Shown here: positions 13,768 through 35,457 of the stretch, piece after piece
How positions within the stretch are numbered: the stretch's first letter is position 1
Layout: each line of letters starts with the position of its first letter
Origin: a candidate division CPR3 bacterium GWF2_35_18
Lineage (GTDB): Bacteria; Patescibacteriota; CPR3; GWF2-35-18
Direction: 5' to 3'
Length of the DNA: 64,000 bases
Assembly: GCA_001771135.1 (NCBI GenBank)
Contig: MESW01000003.1
Coordinates: 235,786-299,785 of the forward strand
The notes under the pieces: model-generated
The model's database searches: none
The model's input: the letters and a program-made list of their open reading frames with translations, nothing else
What the model was told of the DNA's origin: nothing
Position numbers and translations under genes: made by a program

Positions 13768-14675
13768 AATTTTAACTCACTATTTTTTTCCTTCGTTTGT
13801 TTTTTTATCTCTTCTAACCCTTGTTTCAATGATAACATCTTTAATCCCAACTCTTTTGCGGTTTTCTCTGTGTTTAGTGAAACATCAAGAGGTGCTTTGG
13901 TTCTTTTTGTCTTTTCTATATATTTTGAATAGGTAATTCCCTTGACTAGACTTTTATCTAGCCCAAATACTTCCGCAACCCCTCGAGCCAGATCTACCCA
14001 ATTGACATAACTTGTATCGGCAAAATGAAAAACTCCTTGTTTTTTATTCTTAATAATTAATCTTATTCCTTCGGCAATTTTATCAATAAAAATTGGTTTC
14101 AAAAACTGATCTTTCACAACCGTAATTTCTTCTTTGTTTTGAAGCTTCGGAATCATCCACCGCACACAATCGTTTTTGAGTGGATAGTTTGCGCGGTAAG
14201 GATAATTGATTCGAATAATGCTATATTTACAACCACCATTTTTAACAATTTCTTCCGCCTGATATTTTGTCTCAGCGTAAAAATTCTGCGGTTCCGGTTT
14301 ATCTTCTTCTTTATAATTACCTCGGTCCCCTTTAAAAACAAAACCGGTCGACATAAAAATAAAATGGCTATTATGACTTTTACTCTCAATAACTAAACTT
14401 CTTGTTCCTTCGACGTTAATTTTCGTAGCTAAGTTATGATCTTTTTCACAAAGCTCTAAATCCGCAATTGCGGCAAGATGTAAAACAATATCTGGATTTT
14501 CTTGAATAAAAACTTCAGAAACCCTATTTTTATCAGTTATGTCTAAAAAGATATTTTTGATTTCCCTATTCTGATGCGAGGTTCTATCTCCACTCACAAT
14601 TTCAAAATCTTGATGTAAAAGCTCAATTATTCTACTGCCGATTAATCCGGAACCTCCGGTAATGAGTAATTTCAT
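13764..14675 (-). CDS. NAD(P)-dependent sugar epimerase/reductase (RmlD- or Fcl/ColC-like SDR)
   Basis: MKLLITGGSGLIGSRI Rossmann motif and a YAETK (YxxxK) motif. 303 aa. Confidence 0.6.
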   Translation of the reverse strand: MKLLITGGSGLIGSRIIELLHQDFEIVSGDRTSHQNREIKNIFLDITDKNRVSEVFIQENPDIVLHLAAIADLELCEKDHNLATKINVEGTRSLVIESKSHNSHFIFMSTGFVFKGDRGNYKEEDKPEPQNFYAETKYQAEEIVKNGGCKYSIIRINYPYRANYPLKNDCVRWMIPKLQNKEEITVVKDQFLKPIFIDKIAEGIRLIIKNKKQGVFHFADTSYVNWVDLARGVAEVFGLDKSLVKGITYSKYIEKTKRTKAPLDVSLNTEKTAKELGLKMLSLKQGLEEIKKQTKEKNSELKL

Positions 14676-14786
14676 AGAATTTAAGTTTAATATTTATTGT
14701 CATCCTAAAATTCATTCAGGATCTTACAATATACAATAACCCCTAGATTCCGGATCAAGTCCGGAATGACAGAAAAAAAGATATCT

Positions 14787-15761
14787 TCATTTATTCTCAC
14801 CAAGCAACTTTTCCCACCAACGGTGGTTTTTGATATACCAGTCGATTGTTTGTTCCATCGCTTCGTTAAAATTCCACTTTGCCTGCCAACCTAATTCTGT
14901 TCTAATTTTTGAAACATCAATTGATCTTCTTTGGGTATGACCAACCGGTTCTTTTACAAAGTCGATAAGATCTTTGGAACGATCCATAATCGTTAAAATA
15001 AGTTCCGTTACTTCCAAAACTGACTTTTCACAAGAAGCACCAATATTATAAACCTGACCATTAGTATTTTTCCCATGCAAAACATAGTCAATAGCTTCTA
15101 CCTGATCTTCAACATAGATCCAATCACGCATATGTTTTCCTTCACCATGAATCGGAAGTTTTTTACCCTCTAAAGCTTGTATAATAAAAAAAGGAATTAA
15201 TTTCGTTGGATATTGATACGGTCCAAAATTATTGGCGCAACGTAAAATAGTTACAGGTGTTTCGTAAGTCAAATAATAAGAATAAGCCAACCTGTCAGAT
15301 CCGGATTTTGAAGCGGCTCCCGGTGTCATTGGATTCAGAGAATCTGTTTCCGTAAAAAGCTTTGCCGCATCCTTTTCAATCACTGAATCTCCATATACCA
15401 CATAGTCAGAAACATGAATCAGTTTTCGAATTTTATCTTTTCTGATAGCCTCAAGTAGATTAAAAGTACCGACAATATCTGTTGTGAGAAAAGATCCATC
15501 ACTATCAAATCTAAGACTCGTTGCAAGATTAATTATAACTTCAGCGTCATTCACAAGGGGTTGAATGATTTTACTATCTCTAATATCACCCTCTACAAAT
15601 TTGTATTTATGGTCACCTACAATCTCTTCCATACTATCCATATCATGCTGGTAAGACAGTTTATCCATATTCACAATTTCGTATCCTGGATATTTTTTAA
15701 AAAGATATTTGATTAAATGTTTTCCGATAAAACCGGAACCACCGATAATTAAAAGTTTCAT
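14787..15761 (-). CDS. RmlB-like (dTDP-glucose 4,6-dehydratase family) paralog that has lost the catalytic residues
   Basis: Collinear similarity to the adjacent RmlB across most of its length (NNFGPY, GKKLPIHGEGKHMRDWIYVED). However, YSASK is replaced by GAASK and TDEVFG by SDYVVYG. Confidence 0.7.
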   Translation of the reverse strand: MKLLIIGGSGFIGKHLIKYLFKKYPGYEIVNMDKLSYQHDMDSMEEIVGDHKYKFVEGDIRDSKIIQPLVNDAEVIINLATSLRFDSDGSFLTTDIVGTFNLLEAIRKDKIRKLIHVSDYVVYGDSVIEKDAAKLFTETDSLNPMTPGAASKSGSDRLAYSYYLTYETPVTILRCANNFGPYQYPTKLIPFFIIQALEGKKLPIHGEGKHMRDWIYVEDQVEAIDYVLHGKNTNGQVYNIGASCEKSVLEVTELILTIMDRSKDLIDFVKEPVGHTQRRSIDVSKIRTELGWQAKWNFNEAMEQTIDWYIKNHRWWEKLLGENK

Positions 15762-15764
15762 AGA

Positions 15765-16772
15765 TTATCTTCCATATTGTTTTTGATAATATTTTTGATA
15801 CTCACCGGATTTTATATTCATCCACCAAGTACGATTATCTTTATACCAACTGATAGTTTTTTCTAAATAAGTATCAAAATCATGTAAAGGCTTATAACCT
15901 AATTCTTTCGCAGCCTTGGAATGATCTAGGCCATATCTACGATCATGTCCGGGACGGTCTTTGACAAACTCAATTTTATCTTCCTTTTCTTCCATTATTT
16001 CTAGGATTTTTTTTACGACTTCAAGATTACTTTTTTCACTATCACCACCAATACAATAGGTCTCACCAAATTTACCTTTTTGCAAAATAAGATCAATGGC
16101 TCGACAATGATCTTCAACATATAACCAATCGCGGACATTTTTTCCATCACCGTAAACCGGAACTTTTTTCCCTTCGAGTAAATTCGTAATCGTAAGTGGG
16201 ATAAATTTTTCCGGAAAATGATAGGGACCGTAATTATTTGAGGTGTTGCTAATCGTTACCGGTAAAGAATAAGTCTTGTAATAAGCACGAACTAAACAAT
16301 CAGAACCAGCTTTACTGGCAGAATAAGGTGAATTTGGCCGAAACGGTGAATCCTCATTGAATCTATCCTGAGTATTTAATTCTAAAGATCCGAAAACCTC
16401 ATCAGTGGAAATGTGATGAAAATGTTTAATATTATGCTTCAAAGCTGATTCCAATAAGACGTTCGTTCCTAAAACATTAGTTTTCACAAAAACCGTAGGA
16501 TCCATGATAGAACGATCCACATGAGTCTCCGCCGCAAAGTGAACGATTTTGTCTACTCCAACAAGTATCCTGTCTACAAAATTAACATCCGTGATATCAC
16601 CTTTTACAAATTGATAACGCGGATTTTTTTCAAGAAATTTCAGGTTTTCCAGATTCCCACAATAAGTTAATTTATCAAGATTAAGAATCTCATCTTCGGG
16701 ATGATTTTTGAGATAGTAGTGAATAAAATTGGAACCGATAAATCCAGCTCCACCGGTAACAAGTAGCTTCAT
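15765..16772 (-). CDS. rmlB: dTDP-glucose 4,6-dehydratase
   Basis: GGAGFIGSN, HISTDEVFG and PYSASK motifs, plus NNYGPYHFPEKFIPL...GDGKNVRDWLYVEDH. Classic RfbB/RmlB. Confidence 0.9.
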   Translation of the reverse strand: MKLLVTGGAGFIGSNFIHYYLKNHPEDEILNLDKLTYCGNLENLKFLEKNPRYQFVKGDITDVNFVDRILVGVDKIVHFAAETHVDRSIMDPTVFVKTNVLGTNVLLESALKHNIKHFHHISTDEVFGSLELNTQDRFNEDSPFRPNSPYSASKAGSDCLVRAYYKTYSLPVTISNTSNNYGPYHFPEKFIPLTITNLLEGKKVPVYGDGKNVRDWLYVEDHCRAIDLILQKGKFGETYCIGGDSEKSNLEVVKKILEIMEEKEDKIEFVKDRPGHDRRYGLDHSKAAKELGYKPLHDFDTYLEKTISWYKDNRTWWMNIKSGEYQKYYQKQYGR

Positions 16773-17206
16773 TATTTTACAACTCCTTGAATTAATTCTT
16801 CCTCCGAATATTCAACCTGCTCATCTTTAAGGCTCGGATCGTAAGCCGGATCTGGATAATTCACAAGCCAGGCAACTTCGTTACCGATATTTAGTAAACC
16901 GGTTGCGATATTTTTAGGAATAAATAGGCGTTGCGGATTCTCTGCATCCAATATGTGTTCTTCCTTTTCCGCTGTACCTGGTTTATATAAAGTAATCTTC
17001 ATCTTACCTTTCAGACAAACATATCGAGCCGCTCGCACCCGATGCAGATGATAACCTTTAAACATTCCCGGATTAGTTGCCGCTAGATAAACCTCCGTTT
17101 TTGTATCACTAATATCTTTAAACAATTCTATTAAAAATCCATTATCTTGTCCGGAATGATCTTTTGTTCCTACTTTTTTTGCTGATTCGATTTTTGCTAG
17201 AGCCAT
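16772..17206 (-). CDS. Cupin-fold sugar-nucleotide isomerase/epimerase: FdtA/QdtA/WxcM-like 3,4-ketoisomerase or a short RmlC-like protein
   Basis: 144 aa. KGYHLHR resembles the WxcM/FdtA RGxHAHK motif rather than RmlC RGLHFQ. Too short for a canonical RmlC. Confidence 0.5.
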   Translation of the reverse strand: MALAKIESAKKVGTKDHSGQDNGFLIELFKDISDTKTEVYLAATNPGMFKGYHLHRVRAARYVCLKGKMKITLYKPGTAEKEEHILDAENPQRLFIPKNIATGLLNIGNEVAWLVNYPDPAYDPSLKDEQVEYSEEELIQGVVK

Positions 17207-17239
17207 AAGAAATTAATCCTTTCATCTATAACTAAAATT

Positions 17240-18016
17240 TTATTCTCGATTTCTATATAAATTCATTAAATCTTTCTTTTCATTTTCTCCCATCAACTCC
17301 TTGGCAACAAGAATATTCGCACGCATAAGTTCTTCGAAAGAAGACCCGGCATCCACCCACCAATCTTTGAGAACTTCACAGGTAAGCGTTCCTTGTTTCA
17401 GATAAAAATTGTTAAGATCGGTAACTTCCATTTCTCCCCGTGCCGAAGGATTTTGTTTCTCAATAAAATCAAAAACCTGACTATCATACATATAAATTCC
17501 AGTTTGGGCTAGGTCTGATTTTGGATATTGAGGTTTTTCCTCTATAGAAATAACTTTTCCCTTTTTATCGAGTTCAATCACGCCATAATGCTTACACTCG
17601 GTTGGCATTCTTTTGGCAACAACCTTCGCTCCTTTTTTCTGCCTGTCAAAATCTACAACCGCTTTACTTAAGTTATAACTAAAAATATTATCACCCAAAA
17701 TAACTACAATTTTTTCATTATCGGCAAAACTCTTTGATAATCCGATCGCCTGTGCAATTCCACCTTTGGGATTATCCTGAACCTCGTATGATATTTTGAC
17801 TCCAAAATTATCTATTTTTTTTAAAAGAGTGATGAATTGACCAACATGTTCCGGATTGGTGGTAATCAAAATTTCTTTGATACCGGCTTGGACTAAAGAT
17901 TCCAAGGGATAAAAAATCATCGGTTTATTATAGATCGGAAGTAAATGTTTATTCGTCACCCAAGTTAAAGGACGAAGTCGAGTGGCCATTCCTCCAGCAA
18001 GAATTACACCTTTCAT
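17240..18016 (-). CDS. Sugar-1-phosphate nucleotidyltransferase (RmlA/ManC-like)
   Basis: MKGVILAGGMATRLRPLT nucleotidyltransferase signature. 258 aa. Confidence 0.8.
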   Translation of the reverse strand: MKGVILAGGMATRLRPLTWVTNKHLLPIYNKPMIFYPLESLVQAGIKEILITTNPEHVGQFITLLKKIDNFGVKISYEVQDNPKGGIAQAIGLSKSFADNEKIVVILGDNIFSYNLSKAVVDFDRQKKGAKVVAKRMPTECKHYGVIELDKKGKVISIEEKPQYPKSDLAQTGIYMYDSQVFDFIEKQNPSARGEMEVTDLNNFYLKQGTLTCEVLKDWWVDAGSSFEELMRANILVAKELMGENEKKDLMNLYRNRE

Positions 18017-18064
18017 TATGATTCCTCCATAGATTTATTACTTTAATTTTTCTTTATTCTTCCG

Positions 18065-18997
18065 TCAAATATGTTTATCTTTCATCCAAACATGTTTATA
18101 CCAATTAACGGTTTTTTTGATTCCTTCTTCAAGCGAAACTGCAGCTTTCCATCCTAATTCTTTCTTGATCTTAGAAACATCGGCAATCGTTGTGATTTGA
18201 TCGCCAGGACGTGGACCAAGATCATCTATCTGATATTCTTTCCCAACTGCTTTTCCAATTAAATCTAATAATTTATCAATTCTGGTTCCTTTTTCTGTTC
18301 CAATATTATAGACGTGAAAACCTGTCTGCGTAAGTGGAGACACATGAGCATGAGCGATATCTTCCACAAACACAAAATCGCGAACACATTCGCCCTTCCA
18401 ATAAAGAGGGACTTTTTTCCCCTTCATAATTGATTTGATAAAATTGGGAAAAACATGTGATTCTTCATGTTTCTTCATCCACGGACCATATGCATTGAAA
18501 TAACGTAAAATTGTGGGATGAAAACCATAGCATTTATGATAAGTAAAAAGCATATCTTCAAACATTAATTTGGTCGCCCCATAAGGATTACCCGTAAACT
18601 TCGGAGCATCTTCTTTTATAGGAACAGGTACGTTTTCAGCATAAACAGCAGCCGTCGAGGAAAAAATAATTTTCTTAACTCCGGAAAGTCTCATTTCCTC
18701 AAGAAGGTTAATTCCATTTACCACATTGTTTTCAAAATATTTATCCGGGTGCTTTACCGATTCCGAGACTTCGATTAAAGCTGCCATATGAATAACCACA
18801 TCAATTCCTTTTAAGGATTTTTGGATCGCTGCTCTATCCTTAAGATCGGCCACAATTAATGTTGCTCTTTTGTCTACAGTTTCGGAGAAACCTTCGGAGA
18901 GATTGTCAAAAACCACTACCTGATGTTTCAGATCACATAAAAGTTTGACGATACTTGAACCAATAAAACCGGCACCGCCGGTAACTAAAATTTTCAT
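18065..18997 (-). CDS. NAD-dependent epimerase (UDP-glucose 4-epimerase GalE-like)
   Basis: MKILVTGGAGFIGSSIV and YGATK motifs. Confidence 0.8.
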   Translation of the reverse strand: MKILVTGGAGFIGSSIVKLLCDLKHQVVVFDNLSEGFSETVDKRATLIVADLKDRAAIQKSLKGIDVVIHMAALIEVSESVKHPDKYFENNVVNGINLLEEMRLSGVKKIIFSSTAAVYAENVPVPIKEDAPKFTGNPYGATKLMFEDMLFTYHKCYGFHPTILRYFNAYGPWMKKHEESHVFPNFIKSIMKGKKVPLYWKGECVRDFVFVEDIAHAHVSPLTQTGFHVYNIGTEKGTRIDKLLDLIGKAVGKEYQIDDLGPRPGDQITTIADVSKIKKELGWKAAVSLEEGIKKTVNWYKHVWMKDKHI

Positions 18998-20870: not shown

Positions 20871-23627
20871 TTAGGCTAATCTAACAGTAAAAGAGAACGT
20901 ACTTCCTTTACCTAAGATTGATTTGACTCCGATTTTTCCACCATGCAATTCTACTAATGCTTTTGAGATATACAATCCCAATCCAGTTCCAGATGTTTCG
21001 GAAATCATCGCATATGATTCATCGAGTCTTACAAATTTTTTAAACAGTTTTGGAATATCCTGTCTAGAAATTCCTCTACCAGTATCAGTCACATCAATCT
21101 GTACAAATTTACCTTTACGATGAGCCCCTACTTTTACCTTGCCATGCGGAGAGGTAAATTTTAAAGCATTCCCCACCAAATTGAGAAGAACTTCACGGAT
21201 TTTCTTTTCATCAATATCTACTTTTGGCAGTAAAGCTTTAGAGAAGTCATATGTAAGCTCAATCTTCTTCTCAACAGCTTTTGGCAATATTTCATCAAAG
21301 GTACTTTTTATCAGATCTTCTATCTGCTCCGGATGAAATACCATCTCAATTCTTCCACCTTCAATACGCGAGACATCAAGCATATCGGAAACCAAAGCAA
21401 TCAATCTTTCTGTGGATCTAATGATTTTATCTAAATAATCTTTTTGGTGCGGAGATAAACGAGCCTTATGTTTCCCTCTTTGTAACATCCACGCATATCC
21501 CTGAATTGCAGTCATAGGTGTTCGCAATTCATGTGAAGCGATGGAAACAAATTCATCCTTCATCCGATCTAGCTCTTTAAGATGATTATTGGCTCTTTCA
21601 AGTTGTTCATTTGTATGCGTAAGACTGTCGTAAAGACTGGCATTCTCGATCGCAATTCCTGTTTGATCTGCAAAAGCCTGCATTAACTCTTTTTCTTTAC
21701 TGGTAATCTTCTTGATATCTTTCTGTAATCCAAGGACAACTACCCCTAATTTTTTACCTTTCGCCGAAAGTGGCCAAACGACGTTGGTCTTTATGCCCGT
21801 TTGTTGTTGAATTTTCTTACTCAAACTTTCTGGTATTACTGGATTATAAAGATCGGAAAGACGTGGAAAATACATTGGTTTTGATTCAAAAACGGTCTTT
21901 ACTAAAGGATTTTCTTTATCAAATAAAGAAATTGTAAATTGGTGAATTTTTTTAGGCAAATATTCTTTAATTTTATCGAAACTAGGGGTTTGAGAAATAG
22001 CTCGAGCGCGTAGAATATGGTGTTTCTCGTCAATAAGAGCAATCATTCCCCCTACATAACCCATTTCCCATGAGATTGTATCTACGATTTTCTGACTCAT
22101 GAGATCAAGATCTAAAGTATTCATAATAATCTGATCTAAGCTACGTAATATCGCCAAAAAGTGATTTTTTCCACGTAAATCTGCAGTAGCATTAGCAACC
22201 TCTTTCTGCAGGTTTTTAGAAAAGTTCTGAACCTCAGAATAGAGATATGCGTTTTCTATTGCAATCCCAGCCTGATATGACAACGTTTCTAACGAATGAA
22301 TATCATTGACAGTAAAAGCTTCATTGCTCTTTTTCTCTCCTAGAATAATCATTCCGGTAATCTTCTCTGTTCCATGTAAGGGAATGATTACCTGTCCTGA
22401 CACCTTAGAAAGCTCTTCAATAATTTTCTCTGACTCAACTTTCTTTAGATCGGTATCAAGCTGAGCTCTCATTTCATCGATCACTAAAATCTCTTCATCA
22501 CGTAAAATTCTCTGAATAATTGGATCTTGTATAGCAAGATCAAAATTATTTAACTTATCACCCATAGATCTTAGTTCATTATTATTAGAAAAAATGAAAA
22601 AAGTGACAAAATTCACATGAAAAACGTCTTTAAATGCATCCTGTATTCTTTTAACAAGAGATTCTAGATCAATACTTTCAGCCATTGTACGAGCAAGACG
22701 ATTTAAAACCTCTTGCTCCGTATAAGTACGTTGGAAAAAAAATTTATCCGTCACGAGAATAATAATATTACTGATAAACTGACCCAAAAGTGCAACAATC
22801 AATACCAAAACAAAGATCAGAATAAATGCACGAGTATCGATTGGTACTTTTGTCAAAAGACTATAGACATATAGACCTAAGACTGAAATACCAAAAAGAA
22901 TGGAGCTATAAAGAAGCTTAATAATTAGAGCTCGAACCGCAAAACGGATATCAAGAAAACGCGTTTTCATTATTGCATAAGTTATAAATCCTACAAGCAA
23001 TAAAGTAGCAACAGGACCAAGATTTTGTATATCATAATATCCTGTAAACAATGGTATAAAAATATTAGTTAAAGATCCAAAGATTACTGCAAAAGTAATC
23101 CCAAGGATAAAAAATTTGATTTGCAACCTTTCTATACCTACGCTTTTTCTAAGCTTTTTAATTAGGAAAAAAATGTTTGCTATAGTATATCCGACGAAAT
23201 GAATTATAAACCAAATATATAGAGAACCATAAACAGTTGTTCTACTATTTCCATTAACCAATTCTTCTGCTGCTATTAATGGTGTAAAAAATGCCACTAT
23301 AAATAGTAGAAGACTTTCAGTGAATGTAAATTTAGTAATATATTTAAATTTAAAACTTTCTTCTTTTGGAAAAATCTCAACAAACTTTAATAATAAGTAA
23401 GGCATTAATGACGAAGCTGCGAAGTTAAAACGGCCCATCCATAATACGAAAACACAATTATTAATATAATAATATAAGTACAAGCTAACTAACCAAGCAA
23501 TTATACATAAAATAAACAAAGTAAATAAGATATTTTTTTTATTATGTTTATTTTTAGAAAAAACAATTACAGCTAGAAAAAAATTAGCAAAAAAAGTAAA
23601 AGCATAGAAAGGTAAAGAATTTTCCAT
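20871..23627 (-). CDS. Sensor histidine kinase: multi-TM N-terminus, GAF domains, HisKA and HATPase_c. No response regulator in the window.
   Basis: 918 aa. About 7 N-terminal TM helices. H-box SIASHELRTPMTAIQGY. ATPase G-boxes DTGRGI and GTGLGLYISKALVELHGGKIGV. Confidence 0.85.
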   Translation of the reverse strand: MENSLPFYAFTFFANFFLAVIVFSKNKHNKKNILFTLFILCIIAWLVSLYLYYYINNCVFVLWMGRFNFAASSLMPYLLLKFVEIFPKEESFKFKYITKFTFTESLLLFIVAFFTPLIAAEELVNGNSRTTVYGSLYIWFIIHFVGYTIANIFFLIKKLRKSVGIERLQIKFFILGITFAVIFGSLTNIFIPLFTGYYDIQNLGPVATLLLVGFITYAIMKTRFLDIRFAVRALIIKLLYSSILFGISVLGLYVYSLLTKVPIDTRAFILIFVLVLIVALLGQFISNIIILVTDKFFFQRTYTEQEVLNRLARTMAESIDLESLVKRIQDAFKDVFHVNFVTFFIFSNNNELRSMGDKLNNFDLAIQDPIIQRILRDEEILVIDEMRAQLDTDLKKVESEKIIEELSKVSGQVIIPLHGTEKITGMIILGEKKSNEAFTVNDIHSLETLSYQAGIAIENAYLYSEVQNFSKNLQKEVANATADLRGKNHFLAILRSLDQIIMNTLDLDLMSQKIVDTISWEMGYVGGMIALIDEKHHILRARAISQTPSFDKIKEYLPKKIHQFTISLFDKENPLVKTVFESKPMYFPRLSDLYNPVIPESLSKKIQQQTGIKTNVVWPLSAKGKKLGVVVLGLQKDIKKITSKEKELMQAFADQTGIAIENASLYDSLTHTNEQLERANNHLKELDRMKDEFVSIASHELRTPMTAIQGYAWMLQRGKHKARLSPHQKDYLDKIIRSTERLIALVSDMLDVSRIEGGRIEMVFHPEQIEDLIKSTFDEILPKAVEKKIELTYDFSKALLPKVDIDEKKIREVLLNLVGNALKFTSPHGKVKVGAHRKGKFVQIDVTDTGRGISRQDIPKLFKKFVRLDESYAMISETSGTGLGLYISKALVELHGGKIGVKSILGKGSTFSFTVRLA

Positions 23628-23653: not shown

Positions 23654-24541
23654 TCATTTAACTAAATTATTACACAAATATTCCTTTGAGACTAGACGCT
23701 CCCACTCGTGAGTATTAATTTTAGACAAAGTTTCAATTTCATTATTTGGTATTGATTTTTTTGCTAAAGTAAAATATGGAGCAGCCACTAGAGCACACCC
23801 AATTTCATTTTGGTGAACAAAGACATCTTTTACGACAACAAAGATCTCTTTATAATCAACTTTTTGATTTTCACCTATCATTAAAATACTTGTCGCTATT
23901 TTCCTAGATATTGGCTCATACAATTCAACGTTATATTTCATTGGATGTTCACCATCAGGTATAAAACCCATATCTTCCATTAAAAGATTTGCATTTTGTG
24001 TTCTATCATTTGCGATACCAATAGCAATAGCAGAATATATACGAATTGGTCCTTTTAATTTTATATTTTTACCTGCACATGGTACATGAGATCCAGGCAA
24101 AAGTGGGAATCTTTTTTTCTCAACAGTTCCAAATAATCGTTTAGTAGCATTAACAAGTGGTTCTCCAGAGTATACACGAACAATTCTTCCGTTTCTTTTC
24201 ACAGATGAAACTCCATAAGCAGACTCCTGTCTGATATTGCTATGCCTAGCAATATCATATCCCCATATCAAACCATTTAATCCACAAAATGAAGATACTG
24301 TGATCATGTTTATTTGTCCAATATTTGTATCATATACCTCAGCTTTATCAAATGCATTTATTTTATCTAAATTATCCGATCCACTACTAGTCAATTCTAT
24401 TTTCGACCTACCAACACCTAAAACTATACCTAAAATATAATTATTCCCGGAGGCCCCTGGACTACCAAAGCCATCACAATAATAATCATATGAGCTTATT
24501 GATCCCTTTAATCTGTCTGTTACTTTTATTTTTTTTGTCAT
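23654..24541 (-). CDS. Pyruvoyl-dependent amino-acid (histidine-type) decarboxylase proenzyme-like (HdcA/PF02329-like)
   Basis: 295 aa. The motif order matches my recollection of the Lactobacillus 30a HdcA proenzyme: IGQINMITVSS-FCGLNGLIWGYDI, with the Ser-Ser self-cleavage site at about residues 83-84. Then SHVPCAGKN, IYSAIAIGIANDRT and VAAPYFTLAKKSIPNNEIE. Confidence 0.55.
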   Translation of the reverse strand: MTKKIKVTDRLKGSISSYDYYCDGFGSPGASGNNYILGIVLGVGRSKIELTSSGSDNLDKINAFDKAEVYDTNIGQINMITVSSFCGLNGLIWGYDIARHSNIRQESAYGVSSVKRNGRIVRVYSGEPLVNATKRLFGTVEKKRFPLLPGSHVPCAGKNIKLKGPIRIYSAIAIGIANDRTQNANLLMEDMGFIPDGEHPMKYNVELYEPISRKIATSILMIGENQKVDYKEIFVVVKDVFVHQNEIGCALVAAPYFTLAKKSIPNNEIETLSKINTHEWERLVSKEYLCNNLVK

Positions 24542-24550
24542 AGATTTTCC

Positions 24551-25495
24551 TTATTTTGCTAATCTTCTAATTAAATTGGGTGAAACGTTTTGTTGGATTT
24601 TCAATAAAGAAACAATATCTGGATGATATAAAAAAACTAAGCCATCCGCAGTTTGATGTATTGCTTCAAAACCATACATAGATGCTAAACGAAAAACTTG
24701 AGAACGCGTTGATGTCCAAAACACCGCTTCTTTTGCTCCATTGTATACACCATGTTCAAAGGCAACTCTTGCAAGATTGAAGAAAGAACCTGGAACATCT
24801 CTAAAGTTAGTATCTGGATCATCAGCTCTTAGTGTTCCCATCTCATCTTCGTATAATATATTTTCTAAATTTGCTCCTCTTTCTTGAAGGGCTTGCTCTA
24901 CTTGAAGTAATTCTTGTCGACCTGAATCATTTCCTTTAAATCTTGCATTAAATATCCTATCAGAAATTCCATTCCATGAACCCACACAACATTCTACAAA
25001 ACCGCCTACAAGAGTATCTTCATTACCATACATAATTCCTAAACATGGTTTTATATCTTCTGATGGTCTTAACTCCGAAATAAATCTATCTTTTAATTCA
25101 TCTCTATTGTAATAAGGCTTTAATTCTCCATTACAACTTTGGCATATTCCACTACTACCTTGATTTAAAGGTATTATCTTCCCGCAATTAATACATTTCC
25201 AACCTTCACCCCAAATTACTTCTCCCGTATTTTTATCAATTTCATCATCTCCAAATACTTTAACATATGTATCTACCAATGAATCTATTAAAGTTTCATC
25301 AATTTTTTCCATTGAATTATAGGAATAATATCTTTCTGGAAGCTTTATTTTAGCTCTTTCTGGAGAAGATGATAATGGTAGAAATTTAGGAATTCCTTGA
25401 AGTAGTAGAGATTTGAAGCCACCAGAATCTGACCTCATAACAGGTATTGCAGCTTTTATAAATTCAGTTTCATCAAAAGGTTTTTCATCATTCAT
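24551..25495 (-). CDS. GNAT-fold-like (acyl)transferase with an inserted C4 zinc ribbon. Paralog of the next gene.
   Basis: VKVFGDDE... N-terminal motif. Zinc-ribbon insertion CINCGK...CQSCNG. C-terminal GNAT-like motif ...AVFWTSTRSQVFRLASMYGFE (N..A..lY...GF pattern). Confidence 0.45.
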   Translation of the reverse strand: MNDEKPFDETEFIKAAIPVMRSDSGGFKSLLLQGIPKFLPLSSSPERAKIKLPERYYSYNSMEKIDETLIDSLVDTYVKVFGDDEIDKNTGEVIWGEGWKCINCGKIIPLNQGSSGICQSCNGELKPYYNRDELKDRFISELRPSEDIKPCLGIMYGNEDTLVGGFVECCVGSWNGISDRIFNARFKGNDSGRQELLQVEQALQERGANLENILYEDEMGTLRADDPDTNFRDVPGSFFNLARVAFEHGVYNGAKEAVFWTSTRSQVFRLASMYGFEAIHQTADGLVFLYHPDIVSLLKIQQNVSPNLIRRLAK

Positions 25496-25585
25496 AATTC
25501 ATAACAGTATAATACTATATTTATGAAATTACTGGAAGGAATAAGACTATTATGAGGCATTTAGCCTTATTCCTTCCATTTTTAG

Positions 25586-26290
25586 TCATAACCGTGACGT
25601 TAGCTTCATTAAACGTGCGATTTTACGTTGTTTTAGATTCTGTGTGATTTTCAGTAACGGAGTAAAATCGCGATTTACAAGGAATACAATACCTTCACTT
25701 TCACATAAAGGTTCGAATCCCATGTAAACTGACAAGTTTGCAATATTGCTTTTCCATGAAGTCCAGAAAATAAGAGATTTTACTCCTTGATTGAATGCTA
25801 ATTCCAATCCTGGCCTCAACAGAAATTGAATTGGAGTTAAACCTCCTCTTGATGTCGAAGTTATAGCAAATTCATCATAGAATAATATTGAATCGCTTTT
25901 GGTATGGGGTAAATTTGCCAATAACTGCCTTACGCCAGTGAAATTGGATTTTGTTCGAAGTATTCTCTGTGATATTTGCGATTTGGGAATTAACGCTCCC
26001 CAACTAAAACCAACCACACCTAAAGGTGAAGACATGGTTGTTAAAAATCCGGATTCAATTTCGTCGTATAAACGGCATAAAATTGTTTCAGGATCATGAA
26101 TCTCATTCCAGGGAGGTTCTCCGAAAACCTGAATGTAAGCAGAAACTACCTGCTGTGCAACAGTCTCTGGACATGAATCAAAATATGAATGAAATTTTGG
26201 GGGAATTCGAACTGGGGATCCCTCAAGTGGGTAAATCTTATATGGCAATGTACCCATTCTTAGAATAGATCTAATCAACAAGTATTTCAT
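25586..26290 (-). CDS. GNAT-fold-like (acyl)transferase. Paralog of 24551-25495.
   Basis: IQVFGEPPWNE, then SRGGLTPIQFLL, then ...SLIFWTSWKSNIANLSVYMGFE. The C-terminal tails of the two paralogs are alike. GGAGAG RBS. Confidence 0.45.
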   Translation of the reverse strand: MKYLLIRSILRMGTLPYKIYPLEGSPVRIPPKFHSYFDSCPETVAQQVVSAYIQVFGEPPWNEIHDPETILCRLYDEIESGFLTTMSSPLGVVGFSWGALIPKSQISQRILRTKSNFTGVRQLLANLPHTKSDSILFYDEFAITSTSRGGLTPIQFLLRPGLELAFNQGVKSLIFWTSWKSNIANLSVYMGFEPLCESEGIVFLVNRDFTPLLKITQNLKQRKIARLMKLTSRL

Positions 26291-26406: not shown

Positions 26407-27162
26407 TTAAAAGTTTTGTGGAATATATTCCACAATTCTAAAACGAGGATATCGCACCAGATTGATTGCTGACATATAATGACACACCTCTCCTACATCT
26501 TTAATAAAATAAATCGAATTATCACTTAAAATATTAGTATTATTGTATTTCTCTTGCGCTTTTATCCAATATTGATGAAATTCTATATAATTTATAGTTA
26601 AATAGTTGATTAAGTCAGTCGTTACTTTGGTGTTCTTAGATAGTTCATAATTTGTATATCTCATAAAAAAAACTAAGTCGTTTAAAAAAAGTGTTTCCCA
26701 TCGTTCCTTTTTCATTGCTTTTTTAAATTGAGGTTGTAGCATAATTTCTAACATGTTCCGGCCTTTAAACATATTTGCGAATATTGAATTTACTCTAAAT
26801 AAATTCAATATTTTTTTGTTCCAATTATGAATGAATAAATAATCATCTTCTAAAAACGATGGATACTTAGATAATTTTAAATATGAATCTGTCTCATTTA
26901 TTGCTAATTTTACTTCTTCAGAATTAACCCTATCTTGCTGAATCCCTATTAGATACATTGCTTGTTTATCTGTTAAATCTAATACTTTCGTAATTTTTAG
27001 TAACGTTTCTTTCGTAGGGTTTATTTGACCGGATTCAACCTTAGAAATATGTCCATTAGAAGCACCAATTTCAAGCTCTAACTGTTGTTGAGTTAATCCT
27101 TTTGAAATTCGAAATTTTTGAACTTTTTCTCCAATCTGTTTTACATTTTCTTCTTTAAACAT
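26407..27162 (-). CDS. XRE-family HTH transcriptional regulator with an approximately 180-aa C-terminal domain (Rgg/RNPP-like architecture is possible)
   Basis: N-terminal HTH ISKGLTQQQLELEIGASNGHISKVESGQINP. 251 aa. Confidence 0.8.
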   Translation of the reverse strand: MFKEENVKQIGEKVQKFRISKGLTQQQLELEIGASNGHISKVESGQINPTKETLLKITKVLDLTDKQAMYLIGIQQDRVNSEEVKLAINETDSYLKLSKYPSFLEDDYLFIHNWNKKILNLFRVNSIFANMFKGRNMLEIMLQPQFKKAMKKERWETLFLNDLVFFMRYTNYELSKNTKVTTDLINYLTINYIEFHQYWIKAQEKYNNTNILSDNSIYFIKDVGEVCHYMSAINLVRYPRFRIVEYIPQNF

Positions 27163-27293
27163 ATATTGTCGGACATTAAGAAAAAGCTATGATAACGGCA
27201 TTATTATACAGAAATTAAGCTTTTTTGCCAAGAAATTTTTATTTAAAAAAAATTCTATCAACTTCAAGGTTAATATGACGCCCAAAAACACGA

Positions 27294-29938: not shown

Positions 29939-30085
29939 ATTCGGTGAGAAAACAGAGGTCAGAACAGAAGTTTCTAACTTCTTCTTCTCACCGAAAAATA
30001 CGGAGAGATACAAAACCCATCCTTTGTTAGTTGACCCTTTAAAAGATCAGGAGAGAGTCTCGATGAGTACCAAACAACTGAATAC
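29939..30085 (+). repeat. Conserved promoter/leader cassette, copy 2, driving the CHAP-domain protein gene
   Basis: The TCGGTGAGAA...TTCTCACCGA hairpin has a different inner loop that keeps its own inner stem. The leader is near-identical through CAGGAGAGAGTCTCGATG. Confidence 0.6.
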
Positions 30086-32402
30086 TGTGTCCACAGGAAG
30101 GCGATACTTTTATCTCGCCCTGGTAGTAACTCTACTTACCAGCGTGATTGGAGCCACTACTACTCAGCCGGTCAAAGCAAATGAAGGAGAACCACCGTCA
30201 AATTACCAAGTCTTTCTGCCTCTGATTCAAAAAGAAACCACAGAAAGTAAATGGCAGCTTTTTCAAAACTCGGAGTATCAATATACCTTTGAATTTCCCA
30301 GTGACTGGATCTACAACACCACAACCTCAGAGTATGAAGATGATCCGATTACCTCAAATCAAGTCACGGACATGCACACCCCAAATGGCGAGTTTGTCCA
30401 AGTTATGACATGGAATAACGATCAGGAAAACCTATCTCTGCTCGAATGGTATGAAAAGTATGATTCTTTTCATACCTCTCTGGATAATCCACCAGCAAAT
30501 CTCAACGCACAAATTGCAGGCTTGGATAGTATATACTTTAATCGTCTTACACTCCAAGCCCCGGCGGATATTACCGCGATCTTTAATAAAGACGGTGCTA
30601 TCTTCAGAATCTGGTATGTGGCTAATGAAGATGGAATTGACTATGAAAACTTTCTGCACCTTCTGCAAACCTTCGAATTTGATGGCCAAACAACCTCCGA
30701 TCAAATTCCAGATGTAACGCCAGACATTTTGGTCAAAGAAGTTTCGCCAAACGCTATCGAAGCCAATACCTGTAATAACAGAACCGATCCCAACGGTAAT
30801 CCATATGCATGTTTATGTAGCGGAGCCTATGGTAACTGCACCTGGTGGGCAAACTATATGCGACCTGACCTCCAAAGTATTAATTTTGGTGATGCTAAAG
30901 ATTGGAATGATGTAGTTTTAAATCATTCAAAACTAAAATACCTCCTTCCAGTCAATGGTACTCCAGAACTTGGCGCCATTGCCGTTTTTGAAGCTTATTA
31001 CCCCTGGGGAGGAATTGGAAACTTAGGACACGTTGCTTATGTCACTGGACACAACTCCCAAGACAACACGATAAGTATCTCTCAGATGTCTTGCGGCACC
31101 AACGGTATCCAGGTATATAACAATATCCCTATTGTTTCCGGACAAATCAGCTTCATTCACGGTTCCCCCACAATCTTTGAACACTCAAATTTTCAAGGAG
31201 ATTGGAGTCGTTTTACAGTTGATCTCCTTAATTACTGGGGTGAAAGATACATGTACTCTGAAGATGGCAACTATGCTTACCTCAATGACAGCGCTTCTTC
31301 AGTATGGATACCTCCAGATTACAGTGTCAGTCTTTTCAAAAATAACAACTGGCAATGCCCAGCAAATACCGGGTACCTTGATAACGGAGATCTATATGGT
31401 AGTGATGGTTACCCAGTTCTGGATACCCGATGGAGTAATTTCACATCACTAATGTTTTCTGATAATACCTCCATGAATGATGCTGTCTCTGGACATCAGA
31501 TTGGACACTTTGTCTGCCTTTCGCCTGGTTGCGGCTCCCTTCAGTCTTTCAATTCGGAATACAATAACGAACATACAAGTCCAGACACAATCTATGGAAT
31601 GTGCAGTGGAGCAACACCACCTCACCTCTATCAAGCGTCAGATCTGGTTGTGCTAAATAACCCTGCTCCCGCAGGTATAGATAATACCTTTACCTTCAGT
31701 ATCTACAATGCTGGTGATCTGACATTCAACATGTCTGAAATCTTTGTCTCTGGACACCTTTATGACGGCGGAGCATGGAAAGCCTGGGCGACTGTCCAAA
31801 ACATTGGACCTGGACAAATAAAGACCTTTATCGCTTCTGCCCCAATGTGGGGAGACAAAATCGGATCCTGGTACATCGATGGGATTGTTTACAAATCTAC
31901 ATCCGGTAATTTCTATAATTTACCTGGAAATGGATTCCTGCAAACTCAAAGCTTCACTGTTTCTAATACCGGAGTTTGGCTGTTTCAAGGGCTTCGATAT
32001 GAAGGAATTGGAGAACGATTTTCAAGTAACGATCCCAATCTTTCTAACAATCGTATCGACAACGATACGACAACATCAATTAAAATCTACACCGGGTGGT
32101 ATACCGTTGTCTGTAAAAATCAAAGTTATGGAGGGAGATGCGAATTTTTTGCTTCCTCAGATAATGATCTGAGAAATAACATCGTTGGGAGTAACACGAT
32201 TTCTTCAATCGTGGTATTAAAAAACTGGATGTTTATCAAAGGATCAACTGCGACAATTTACATCATTGAAAACGGTCAAAAAAAAGGTATTCCTTCCTGG
32301 AAAGAATATCTCTGTCTCGGAGGTCAACCCGGAGGTTATATCACTCTACTTGATACAATAGTGTCTCTTATTCCAACTGGACAGGTAAAACACTGTCCGT
32401 GA
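30063..32402 (+). CDS. Secreted/anchored protein with a duplicated N-terminal domain, a CHAP (cysteine/histidine-dependent amidohydrolase/peptidase) domain and a beta-rich C-terminal region
   Basis: Start revised to the ATG at 30063, which has an AGGAGAGAG RBS. The ORF-track start is an upstream TTG. Signal anchor YFYLALVVTLLTSVIGA. CHAP Cys in GNCTWWANY and His in LGHVAYVTGHN. Confidence 0.7.
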   Translation: MSTKQLNTVSTGRRYFYLALVVTLLTSVIGATTTQPVKANEGEPPSNYQVFLPLIQKETTESKWQLFQNSEYQYTFEFPSDWIYNTTTSEYEDDPITSNQVTDMHTPNGEFVQVMTWNNDQENLSLLEWYEKYDSFHTSLDNPPANLNAQIAGLDSIYFNRLTLQAPADITAIFNKDGAIFRIWYVANEDGIDYENFLHLLQTFEFDGQTTSDQIPDVTPDILVKEVSPNAIEANTCNNRTDPNGNPYACLCSGAYGNCTWWANYMRPDLQSINFGDAKDWNDVVLNHSKLKYLLPVNGTPELGAIAVFEAYYPWGGIGNLGHVAYVTGHNSQDNTISISQMSCGTNGIQVYNNIPIVSGQISFIHGSPTIFEHSNFQGDWSRFTVDLLNYWGERYMYSEDGNYAYLNDSASSVWIPPDYSVSLFKNNNWQCPANTGYLDNGDLYGSDGYPVLDTRWSNFTSLMFSDNTSMNDAVSGHQIGHFVCLSPGCGSLQSFNSEYNNEHTSPDTIYGMCSGATPPHLYQASDLVVLNNPAPAGIDNTFTFSIYNAGDLTFNMSEIFVSGHLYDGGAWKAWATVQNIGPGQIKTFIASAPMWGDKIGSWYIDGIVYKSTSGNFYNLPGNGFLQTQSFTVSNTGVWLFQGLRYEGIGERFSSNDPNLSNNRIDNDTTTSIKIYTGWYTVVCKNQSYGGRCEFFASSDNDLRNNIVGSNTISSIVVLKNWMFIKGSTATIYIIENGQKKGIPSWKEYLCLGGQPGGYITLLDTIVSLIPTGQVKHCP

Positions 32403-33399: not shown

Positions 33400-35457
33400 C
33401 TATATCTTCTTGATTATTTTCAATAATATTCCCATTATTATCGCGATAATTCCTATTTTCAAACCTCTTTTTCCTGTCTTTGGTAACTCAGTAATTGAGC
33501 CTAAAACTGTCCCCGAATCAATCGGAAATTCTGAAACATAAAGATCCTCTTGATATCGTGGCAGAACTCGATATTCTTCTTTGTACTGTGAAACAATTCC
33601 AACAATTTCCGCATAGTAACCCACACGCATTTTGGGTTTATCAATATTTGTCGTATCTTTGATATAAACTTTTATCTCTCCACTACCATCGTTTATATAA
33701 AAGGTATTTCCGGAAGTGGCCACCACCTGCCCGTTTATGATGACTAATTTTCCTTCAGCAATTTCTACAATCTCTCCAGTCTTTTTTGTTTCTGCTATCA
33801 AAGCATCACCATGTGAACTAATTTCTAAAATCGAATCTGATTGCATGTTAAGATAAATCTCATTAAAAGCAACACTTAAAACACCCGAAACTTTAATTTT
33901 ATCCCCAAGGGTTAGAGTGCTGTAATCGCCCCCTTTCAGCTTCACTTTTATTCCCGAAGTAGAATCCTGAACATAGATAATCTTTGAACCCAAAATATCT
34001 GGAGTAGCAGTTAAAATTCCTTGAATTATTATTTCTGTTCCGGAAGGTAAACTTCTCGCTTCTGAAATTGTATATTCTTTCACAACAGCTTTATCTTCAT
34101 CATCATCATCATCATCATCATCATCTTCTTCTTCAATCTCTTCTTCTACAATATTTTCTACCGTGATCACATTTTTGATTTTTGGAGTTGGAGTAGTGCT
34201 AACTTGCCAAATTCCTTTTTCGTCCTTAGCAAAAACTTGATCGGTTTTTAATTTTCCATACGGATACTCTTCGACTAACTTATTATCTGGTGTGAATAAA
34301 CGAATACTATCGCCGTCATTATTAAAAGTAATTCCTGTATCTTTTTGATAAAAGACAAGGTATTCTCCTTGCTTGATTTCTGTATTTTCTGGAATTATGT
34401 ATGAACTACTTCCACCTTCGATATCATCAATAATCCATCCCGTAAGATCGACAGTTTCACTCCCAAAATTATAGAGTTCCACCCATTCGTCATTAGAATC
34501 AGCCACTCCGTTTTTATCGAAGTCCGTGGTTTTCCCCGGATAAGGTAAAATCTCGGAAAGGATAATCTGGTCAGAATAAATAATTTCCTCCACTGTAATA
34601 CTAACAATATTTACGTTTTCTGCCCCACAATCGTCTGTCACTGTTAATTTTACTGAATACGTTCCAACTTCCTTGTAAATATGTGTTACGTTATCCTCAC
34701 TCGTTTCATAATCATCGCCATCTCCAAAATCAAAATAATAGGAAGTGATTTGTCCGTCTGGGTCAGAAGAAAATGAAGCATCAAATTCCACTTCTTGTCT
34801 GACTTTGACAATTTGATCGTATTTTAATTCGGCTATTGGAAGTTGATTCGAAACATAAGACTTTCCGGGCGTTCCATGAATACTTTTGCTGGAAACCCAA
34901 TTTGATGAATCGTTAATTCCATTCAAATCCACTCTTTCCAGACTTTTTCCGAGATCTCCTCCCCAACTCGGATCATAGATAATACTTTCCCATGGAGTTT
35001 CGGAAATGCCAATTTTAAGACTTATTGTATCTACAGTATTTCCAAGTGAAAGACTGTTAACTTGTATTAAGTCTTCTAAATAATCAGGATATCGTGTCAT
35101 GAATTGTATTGGGTTTCGAGCTAAAACAGCATATTGTTGTGAATCCAAAATCATATCTCCTTGATAAGCTGTTTCTTGCAAAGTACGATTAGAGGTTCCG
35201 TCTCCGATTCTCCAAGAGCCAGAAAGCGTCCCACCGATAATCGTTACGGGAGTCAAACCGCGATTGTAGATCTCAATCCATTCAAAATCTGTATCAGAGC
35301 CTTCGGGGTCATACATAATTTCGGAAAAAATAATTTCAGACTCCGCTGCATAAACTGATAATAAAAGGTTATTTTGATTACATAATAACCAGCATAACAA
35401 AACGATAATAAATGAAAATACAAAACGGAAAAGTTTGTTAGAAGTGTGGTGGTACAT
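33400..35457 (-). CDS. LPXTG-anchored surface protein with two lamin-tail domains (LTD), a PKD domain and a poly-Asp/Glu tract
   Basis: N-terminal signal peptide. LTD motifs SEIMYDPEGSDTDFEWIEIYN and SEILPYPG...DEWVELYN. PKD-like FSSDPDGQITSYYFDFGDGD...YSVKLTVTDDCGAE. Acidic tract EEEIEEEDDDDDDDDDEDK. C-terminal LPKTG, a hydrophobic helix and a KIIKKI tail (sortase signal). Confidence 0.8.
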   Translation of the reverse strand: MYHHTSNKLFRFVFSFIIVLLCWLLCNQNNLLLSVYAAESEIIFSEIMYDPEGSDTDFEWIEIYNRGLTPVTIIGGTLSGSWRIGDGTSNRTLQETAYQGDMILDSQQYAVLARNPIQFMTRYPDYLEDLIQVNSLSLGNTVDTISLKIGISETPWESIIYDPSWGGDLGKSLERVDLNGINDSSNWVSSKSIHGTPGKSYVSNQLPIAELKYDQIVKVRQEVEFDASFSSDPDGQITSYYFDFGDGDDYETSEDNVTHIYKEVGTYSVKLTVTDDCGAENVNIVSITVEEIIYSDQIILSEILPYPGKTTDFDKNGVADSNDEWVELYNFGSETVDLTGWIIDDIEGGSSSYIIPENTEIKQGEYLVFYQKDTGITFNNDGDSIRLFTPDNKLVEEYPYGKLKTDQVFAKDEKGIWQVSTTPTPKIKNVITVENIVEEEIEEEDDDDDDDDDEDKAVVKEYTISEARSLPSGTEIIIQGILTATPDILGSKIIYVQDSTSGIKVKLKGGDYSTLTLGDKIKVSGVLSVAFNEIYLNMQSDSILEISSHGDALIAETKKTGEIVEIAEGKLVIINGQVVATSGNTFYINDGSGEIKVYIKDTTNIDKPKMRVGYYAEIVGIVSQYKEEYRVLPRYQEDLYVSEFPIDSGTVLGSITELPKTGKRGLKIGIIAIIMGILLKIIKKI
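34096..34136. repeat. Simple-sequence repeat (ATC)n(TTC)3 encoding the poly-Asp tract
   Basis: Perfect trinucleotide repeat read directly from the sequence. Confidence 0.9.

Follow-up and report, generated by a model that had tools for sequence, protein, structure and literature searches.

A pair of divergent GNAT-like genes in a CPR3 genome

The stretch of DNA analysed here (hereinafter, the window) consists of 64,000 nucleotides of contig MESW01000003.1 from the candidate division CPR3 bacterium GWF2_35_18. The subject of the analysis is a pair of adjacent genes encoding proteins with a GNAT-like fold, together with the genes for a pyruvoyl-dependent decarboxylase-like proenzyme and a sensor kinase that follow them. 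The short and long copies are denoted S and L throughout, residues are numbered as in the window proteins, and these proteins are represented in the databases by KKP70340 (S type), KKP70339 (L type) and KKP70338. Along the minus strand, the order is a gene for an XRE-type helix-turn-helix (HTH) protein, S, a 90-nucleotide spacer with a hairpin, L, the decarboxylase-like gene, which begins 9 nucleotides past the stop codon of L, and the kinase gene (Table 1).

Table 1. Features of the S-L locus, with positions counted from the first nucleotide of the window
Feature	Positions	Strand	Description
XRE-family HTH protein	26407-27162	minus	251 amino acids; Pfam HTH_3, E 1.7e-11; directly upstream of S
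S-type GNAT-fold protein (KKP70340)	25586-26290	minus	234 amino acids; EPPWNE motif, no insert
RNA hairpin in the S-L spacer	25533-25578	minus	near-perfect stem of ~17 base pairs; arms 25534-25547 and 25564-25577
L-type GNAT-fold protein (KKP70339)	24551-25495	minus	314 amino acids; WGEGWKC motif
Cys4 zinc-ribbon-like insert of L	25112-25204	minus	residues ~98-128; C101, C104, C118, C121; read from the sequence
Pyruvoyl-dependent histidine-decarboxylase-like proenzyme	23654-24541	minus	295 amino acids; Pfam HDC (PF02329), E 1.1e-55
Sensor histidine kinase	20871-23627	minus	918 amino acids; HisKA_7TM-GAF-GAF-HisKA-HATPase_c (Pfam); polytopic N-terminus, no receiver domain

The initial annotation of this region described two homologous open reading frames (ORFs), and both are indeed present on the minus strand, with a BLASTP E value of 2e-16 and 27% identity over ~280 alignment columns. 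A profile of the family recovers S and L with E values of 2e-111 and 5e-92, respectively, and it has no other match among the ORFs of the 64-kb window. The sequence motifs on which the pairing had been based are mostly as described: the shared N-terminal motif (YIQVFGE in one copy and YVKVFGD in the other) and the similar tails, IVFLVNRDFTPLLKITQN and LVFLYHPDIVSLLKIQQN, are both there. The C-terminal pattern FWTS..S...(Y)GFE occurs in both copies as well, but is exact for S and only approximate for L, where Ser and Tyr are displaced by one position. The Cys-rich insertion of L (C101-x2-C104...C118-x2-C121) is real but does not replace the PPWNE motif of the shorter protein, as had been proposed. 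Instead, it is located just after the W-x-E motif: in the alignment, W61 and E63 of S correspond to W95 and E97 of L, and the insert follows E97-G-W-K. A second, smaller insert in L, DDEIDKNTG, precedes the W-x-E motif. Beyond its GNAT core, the S protein has additional helices at both termini.

The 5' end of the L gene lacks an obvious Shine-Dalgarno sequence, whereas the S gene and the decarboxylase-like gene each have one, and the first ~55 residues of L are modelled with low confidence. The annotated start of L is probably correct, given that an N-terminal extension of similar length is present in two homologs (L008 and P0035).

Fold assignment and relationship to named acetyltransferases

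The secondary structure elements of the pair follow the order beta1-alpha1-alpha2-beta2-beta3-beta4-alpha3-beta5-alpha4-beta6-beta7, which is that of GNATs at the level of the fold, and a GNAT fold is supported for both proteins. The shared C-terminal motif maps to alpha4-beta6, in agreement with its original reading as GNAT motif B. At the sequence level, neither S nor L matches any of the Pfam (Acetyltransf_1/3/4/7/9/10) or NCBIfam GNAT models at E<=1, which bears out the earlier impression that no GNAT subfamily could be named. The PanM/PanZ models of NCBIfam and Pfam likewise produced no match at E<=1, the pair does not match the Pfam Autoind_synth model (PF00765), and a PADLOC scan of both paralogs assigned no family. 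Among 99 relatives scanned with Pfam, only 4 showed a weak similarity to Acetyltransf_1 (best E value 0.0048). The sole source to name the short protein as an acetyltransferase is UniRef, where its title is "N-acetyltransferase domain-containing protein".

Searches of PDB sequences with single S and L sequences returned nothing, and those with the 99-member profile returned weak or spurious matches with one useful exception, AAC(6')-Iy (E 0.021), whose motif-A Arg aligns, in this weak profile match, with R148 of the S/L family. The canonical motif A loop between beta4 and alpha3, Q/R-x-x-G-x-G/A, is absent from both S and L; at the corresponding site, the family has the consensus R-G-G-(I/L/V)-x-P, in which the Arg alone is kept. 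Because both the sequence-model test and the search for canonical motif A failed, the pair was not filed in a named GNAT family. The best structural matches of S and L include arylalkylamine and polyamine N-acetyltransferases, along with the protein acetyltransferases NatD, Ard1, Naa60, PatZ and PAT.

Two subfamilies and the origin of the pair

A word-indexed search detected only three to four relatives of the pair, whereas an exhaustive HMMER search of 1.84 billion cluster representatives with a 5-sequence profile yielded 357 proteins at E<=1e-3, 52 of these at E<=1e-30. The 152 family representatives comprise 42 proteins of the S type, with the motif VF.EPPWxE.W and no insert, 38 of the L type, with the motif VFG..(D)IWGEGxxC followed by a Cys-rich insert of 30-45 residues, and 72 more distant members. 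One further candidate, L009, was excluded as an ordinary Acetyltransf_1 protein. With the insert columns removed from the alignment, a neighbor-joining tree separates the S and L types into two clades, and either window copy is nested in its own clade among proteins from other phyla. Among the loci examined, both types occur together only in the window; every other locus contains one type.

The S and L genes are adjacent, encoded on the same strand and clearly homologous, as would be expected of a recent tandem duplication in this genome, with a subsequent gain of the zinc ribbon by one copy, and this was how the pair had originally been understood. Such a scenario is extremely unlikely and was rejected on the evidence of the subfamilies and the tree. 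The insert, the WGEGxxC motif and the invariant C101, C118 and C121 are common to 38 of the 152 representatives, which come from other organisms, each window copy clusters with same-type proteins of other phyla and not with the adjacent copy, and the remaining loci carry just one of the two types. Since each copy sits in its own clade, the pair consists of representatives of two different, ancient sister subfamilies rather than of products of a recent local duplication.

Eight residues, Y52, F56, W61, E63, G94, F95, R148 and W176, recur in 90% or more of the 99 diverse family members compared. The residues Y52, F56, W61 and E63 are located in alpha1 and the alpha1-alpha2 loop, R148 opens the beta4-alpha3 loop, and the family also keeps an acidic residue, E140, on beta4. 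Projected on the structural models, these residues would map to the acceptor- and donor-binding sites of GNATs. Members without a neighboring decarboxylase, and those with quite different neighbors, still have them, which argues for a common catalytic or ligand-binding site and not for an interface specific to one partner.

Among the more distant members, proteins of ~210 amino acids with the motifs GF.WAQ and HDLGI (P0130 and L016, 4939-6315) adjoin, or are fused to, a membrane di-iron enzyme of the FA_hydroxylase family, and this association suggests a lipid-like substrate for that branch.

The Cys-rich insert of the L type

The insert of L is located in the alpha1-alpha2 loop, which in GNATs makes up the acceptor site. 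In the model of L, beta-hairpins at residues 98-101 and 124-128 flank the C101xxC104...C118xxC121 array. Pfam zinc-finger models match the insert below threshold, namely zf-C2HC5 (E 3.4e-4, 21 bits compared with the required 25.8) and DZR_2. An alignment of 12 L-type proteins shows no variation at three of the cysteines, C101, C118 and C121, whereas the position of the fourth varies: among the 38 L-type representatives, the insert follows the pattern CxxC...Cx1-2C or C...Cx1-2C-x7-C, or occasionally contains three Cys only, so that the fourth Cys is usually either the second one of CxxC, as in the window protein, or is found seven residues past the Cx1-2C pair ("...CxCGGxxxPC(Y/H)P"). The L insert may bind zinc, in which case L would present a clear case, in the evolution of enzymes, of a zinc module grafted into a GNAT acceptor loop.

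The adjacent decarboxylase

The gene that follows L encodes a member of the HDC domain family, as indicated by the family domain itself, the Ser-Ser cleavage site and the equivalents of Asp63, Glu66 and Glu197 of the Lactobacillus 30a enzyme. In the alignment with Lactobacillus 30a HdcA (1hq6/1pya), Ile59, Asp63, Glu66, Ser81-Ser82 and Glu197 are kept; the equivalents of Asp63, Glu66, Ser81-Ser82 and Glu197 in the window protein are D65, E68, S83-S84 and E189, with self-cleavage predicted between Ser83 and Ser84. Two substitutions are apparent, Tyr62 to Phe and Phe195 to Leu. For the aligned HdcA residues we assume the catalytic and histidine-binding roles that follow from the published 1pya and 1hq6 structures. 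The active-site and cleavage residues are conserved in 12 other aligned decarboxylases from related loci, with one protein at a contig end (L014) showing only its N-terminal block in the alignment. Because the cleavage and active-site residues of HdcA are kept across these homologs, the neighbor of L is likely to be a self-processing pyruvoyl decarboxylase of the histidine type.

The window decarboxylase is 46-54% identical to the decarboxylases encoded next to L-type genes and 40-43% identical to those next to S-type genes. Given this closer relationship, L, the decarboxylase and the kinase appear to form a coherent module in this genome, to which S is an extra copy.

A conserved GNAT-decarboxylase-sensor cassette

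The initial annotation suggested that co-occurrence with HdcA-like genes be examined, and such co-occurrence was found: in all 14 informative loci, the GNAT gene is directly upstream of the HDC-like gene or fused to it. These loci (the window, L001-L008, L010, L013, L014, L019 and P0048/L021) come from CPR3, Actinomycetota, Gammaproteobacteria and metagenomes; searches for related loci with two narrower family alignments recovered five loci each. Four of the loci (L005-L008) belong to genome assemblies of Geothermincolales/Actinomycetota and one metagenome-assembled genome of Gammaproteobacteria, L010, L013 and L014 are all of the L type, and L019 belongs to a sister clade. In P0048/L021, the GNAT and HDC domains are fused in a single polypeptide of 483 amino acids.

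The third component of the cassette is a homologous polytopic seven-transmembrane (7TM) kinase that adjoins the GNAT in the window, L001-3, L005-8, L010, L013 and L021; in effect, a HisKA_7TM(-GAF) sensor is adjacent in every locus that is long enough to show one. Stand-alone receiver genes (encoding 122-137 amino acids) adjoin the cassette in L001, L003, L008 and L013; in L001 (from the Pfam annotation), L008 and L013, they follow the kinase. Full-text searches of the literature on the cassette, on HisKA_7TM and on bacterial N-acyl-histamines found no description of this cassette.

Some L-type proteins lack a decarboxylase neighbor: no such gene is found near those that are fused to an S-adenosylmethionine-dependent methyltransferase (P0081 and P0098) or carry an N-terminal extension of unknown nature (P0077). 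In the L-type loci without a decarboxylase (L015, L018 and L020), the same 7TM-GAF sensor is encoded next to the GNAT, with an HD output domain, and the window kinase is 26% identical to the sensor of L015 over 672 residues (E 2e-45). Signaling proteins of the cyclic di-GMP type flank these relatives (L020, 165-1901 and 3329-5836; L015, 4851-7325), with a GAF-GGDEF protein encoded on the upstream side and a HisKA_7TM-GAF-HD protein on the downstream side.

Two of the loci show additional genes. The L013 operon, with the order L-type GNAT, decarboxylase, kinase and receiver, has an ordinary Acetyltransf_1 GNAT gene in front of it and a deacetylase gene of the Hist_deacetyl family at its end (189-725 and 5537-6553), a layout that hints at acetyl-amine turnover. 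In the gammaproteobacterial genome (L008, 4619-7499), type IV pilus or pseudopilin genes (PilM/PilN-like genes and one encoding an N_methyl prepilin motif) immediately precede the cassette.

Possible functions of the cassette

The reading that we favor, with a probability of roughly 0.5, is that the S/L GNATs N-acylate an amine, probably histamine, which is made by the decarboxylase, and that the neighboring sensor detects the resulting product. Under this scheme, the decarboxylase would convert L-histidine or a close analog to a primary amine (histamine), the GNAT would transfer an acyl group from a thioester donor, either acyl-coenzyme A (acyl-CoA) or acyl-carrier protein, to this amine, and the sensor kinase would perceive the resulting N-acyl-amine via its membrane domain or its GAF domains. 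In the methyltransferase-linked relatives, the same sensor would act through the HD-domain output. The extra copy, S, may provide a second acyl or acceptor specificity or may form a heteromer. What the data show is the homology, the fold, the division into subfamilies, the synteny, a single fusion and the conservation of the decarboxylase active site, whereas the acyl-transfer chemistry, the substrate, the binding of zinc and the signaling role are inferred. The link to the sensor survives both the swap of the partner, from decarboxylase to methyltransferase, and that of the output, from kinase to HD domain, which points to sensing of the product. Hints of amide or lipid chemistry are also found in the family, namely the Hist_deacetyl protein that closes the L013 operon and the fatty-acid hydroxylase next to, or fused with, distant members.

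Several observations weigh against this proposal. The loop that contacts the acetyl-CoA pyrophosphate is replaced by R148-G-G-L-T-P in S and by R232-D-V-P-G-S in L. The window decarboxylase scores 168.7 bits against TIGR00541, the HdcA equivalog model with a cut-off of 346.65, so that its substrate may be other than histidine. No response regulator or receiver gene was found in the 64-kb window, so that the kinase is an orphan here. The GNAT-HDC fusion is known from a single contig, the locus sample is small (~20), with many short metagenomic contigs and several loci from one project (SRR22387xxx-22388xxx), and the neighbor-joining tree that separates S from L carries no support values. Finally, the synteny with the sensor kinase would be equally expected if the kinase merely regulated the operon in response to the substrate.

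One rival explanation is a plain metabolic N-acetyltransferase that acetylates the amine for detoxification or excretion, with the kinase regulating the operon in response to histidine, pH or the state of the membrane, and with no signaling role for the product. Two-component systems commonly flank the genes that they regulate, the evidence on the fold and the decarboxylase is the same as for N-acylation coupled to sensing, the best structural matches include N-acetyltransferases of arylalkylamines and polyamines, and the deacetylase in L013 would fit. This explanation is nevertheless unlikely: the sensor stays linked when a methyltransferase replaces the decarboxylase and an HD domain replaces the kinase output, the amino acid/amine antiporter that is typical of amine-producing decarboxylase operons was not seen in any of the loci, and the associated response regulators consist of a receiver only, without a DNA-binding domain.

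The main rival, which we consider quite unlikely, is a PanZ/PanM-like factor, that is, a GNAT that would perform no acyl transfer but would bind the pyruvoyl proenzyme, possibly in a CoA-dependent manner, and trigger or regulate its Ser-Ser self-cleavage, thus filling the role of HdcB in lactic acid bacteria. There is a documented precedent in the maturation of the pyruvoyl enzyme PanD, which requires a GNAT-fold protein (PMC3398536, PMC4410942, PMC3496974). The invariable position of the GNAT gene, immediately upstream of the proenzyme or fused to it, is consistent with such a role, no other conserved gene in the window or the related loci could encode an HdcB-like maturation factor, and the non-canonical motif A would matter less in a non-catalytic protein. 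However, members that are fused to a methyltransferase or adjacent to a hydroxylase and have no pyruvoyl partner still keep the near-invariant W/E/GF/R/W residues, and the residues conserved in the family would map, on the models, to the acceptor and catalytic position of GNATs rather than to a partner-specific surface. Furthermore, PanZ is a minimal GNAT of 127 amino acids, the fold of its partner is unrelated to that of HDC, and neither the PanM/PanZ models nor any other NCBIfam model matches the pair at the E value limit given above.

It is highly unlikely that S and L are protein acetyltransferases targeting the kinase, the receiver or the decarboxylase of the cassette, with the zinc ribbon serving as a protein-docking module. 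In acetyltransferases, contacts with macromolecules are often made through zinc-finger modules, and N-terminal and lysine protein acetyltransferases, from NatD to PAT, are among the top structural matches. Such matches, however, arise for nearly any GNAT query and carry no specificity, and the fusion with the decarboxylase, together with the links to methyltransferases and hydroxylases, better fits a small-molecule pathway.

An extension of N-acylation coupled to sensing, tentative and rather doubtful, is that the S/L GNATs and the decarboxylase together form the synthase for amine-derived signals of a new class, for example, N-acyl-histamines, with the HisKA_7TM-GAF proteins, whether of kinase or HD output, as dedicated receptors. 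If true, this would be a new synthase-receptor signaling system common to bacteria of the candidate phyla radiation (CPR), Actinomycetota and Proteobacteria, and would reveal a ligand of the HisKA_7TM sensor family for the first time. A cassette for making and sensing a metabolite would be notable in CPR bacteria, which have tiny genomes and poorly understood communication with hosts or partners. More generally, the near-obligate linkage with the decarboxylase and HisKA_7TM leads to a testable hypothesis on both a new amine-derived metabolite and the ligand of a widespread, uncharacterized sensor domain. The fold assignment itself is ordinary; what is new is the conserved cassette of GNAT, decarboxylase and 7TM sensor and the subfamily with the zinc module. 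The family of ~350 clusters has no Pfam or NCBIfam model, and defining it would name hundreds of hypothetical proteins.

Other features of the locus and its surroundings

The spacer between S and L folds with a free energy of -30.6 kcal/mol (25496-25590 on the minus strand; z = -7.35), and none of 200 shuffled sequences was as stable. A second small hairpin is located at ~25498-25527, and the arm sequence of the main hairpin is not found elsewhere in the window. The main hairpin could be a terminator, an attenuator or a processing site that sets the S copy apart from the L-decarboxylase-kinase unit.

The XRE-family protein encoded upstream of S may be a local regulator. It was considered as a conserved partner of the cassette and rejected, having no counterpart in L001-L014 and no homology to the HTH protein that adjoins a distant family member. 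The best promoter-like site of the region, with 11 of 12 matches, is at 27203-27231, just upstream of the XRE gene. In the promoter and terminator scan as a whole, the counts were no better than those for shuffled sequence. Rfam, tRNA and rRNA searches gave no match in the window.

Downstream of the cassette, a run of nucleotide-sugar genes (12799-18997, minus strand) encodes an RmlA-like nucleotidyltransferase, several paralogous 4,6-dehydratases/epimerases, an RmlD-like reductase and a small protein matching Polysacc_synt_C and the FdtA/WxcM C-terminal domain; these genes make up a surface-polysaccharide locus, which is not a conserved neighbor of the cassette. The remaining genes of note encode a CHAP-domain protein of 792 amino acids (30024-32402, plus strand), which lies in a GC-rich stretch (0.43 compared with ~0.33), and a surface protein of 685 amino acids with PKD, Lamin-tail and DUF5689 domains (33400-35457, minus strand).

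Comparison with known systems

The cassette resembles the chemistry of amine N-acetyltransferases, the PanD/PanZ pairing and the synthase-kinase pairs of quorum sensing but is a member of none of these. Amine N-acetyltransferases, such as the insect dopamine/arylalkylamine (3te4), polyamine (5k9n) and serotonin (1kuv) N-acetyltransferases, act on primary amines produced by decarboxylases, which is the step proposed here. Unlike these enzymes, with which they share no detectable sequence similarity, S and L have a non-canonical motif A and conserved extra N-terminal and C-terminal helices, including a PLLKIxQN tail, L has its Cys-rich insert, and their genes keep a constant place in a cassette, alongside those for a pyruvoyl decarboxylase and a 7TM sensor.

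PanZ/PanM is likewise a GNAT-fold protein paired with a self-processing pyruvoyl decarboxylase (PMC4410942, PMC3398536). In the present case, however, the partner belongs to the HDC family, which has a fold different from that of PanD, S and L are twice as long as PanZ and are not matched by the PanM models, and the S/L family also occurs without a pyruvoyl partner. The Gram-positive histamine operon hdcP-hdcA-hdcB(-hisS) encodes a decarboxylase of the same pyruvoyl family, the catalytic residues of which are kept in the window protein. Compared with this operon, the window cassette has no antiporter and no conserved HdcB-like gene, a GNAT is encoded upstream and a 7TM kinase downstream, and the decarboxylase scores far below the HdcA equivalog threshold.

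A GNAT-like fold is also found in the N-acyl amino acid/amide synthases (FeeM, 2g0b) and the C-terminal domain of Ebony (6dym), which build amides with acyl groups that are bound to a carrier. With histamine as its acceptor, Ebony makes beta-alanyl-histamine, although no sequence relationship of S or L to either FeeM or Ebony was detected. The LuxI-type synthases of acyl-homoserine lactones (LasI, 1ro5; TofI, 3p2h; BjaI, 5w8a) have a GNAT-like fold as well, whereas S and L do not match their Autoind_synth model. The gene arrangement recalls that of the quorum-sensing pairs LuxM/LuxN and CqsA/CqsS, in which, as proposed for the cassette, the gene for the synthase of a small molecule adjoins that for a polytopic membrane kinase. 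The partner of the S/L proteins is a decarboxylase or a methyltransferase, so the chemistry must differ from that of the quorum-sensing synthases.

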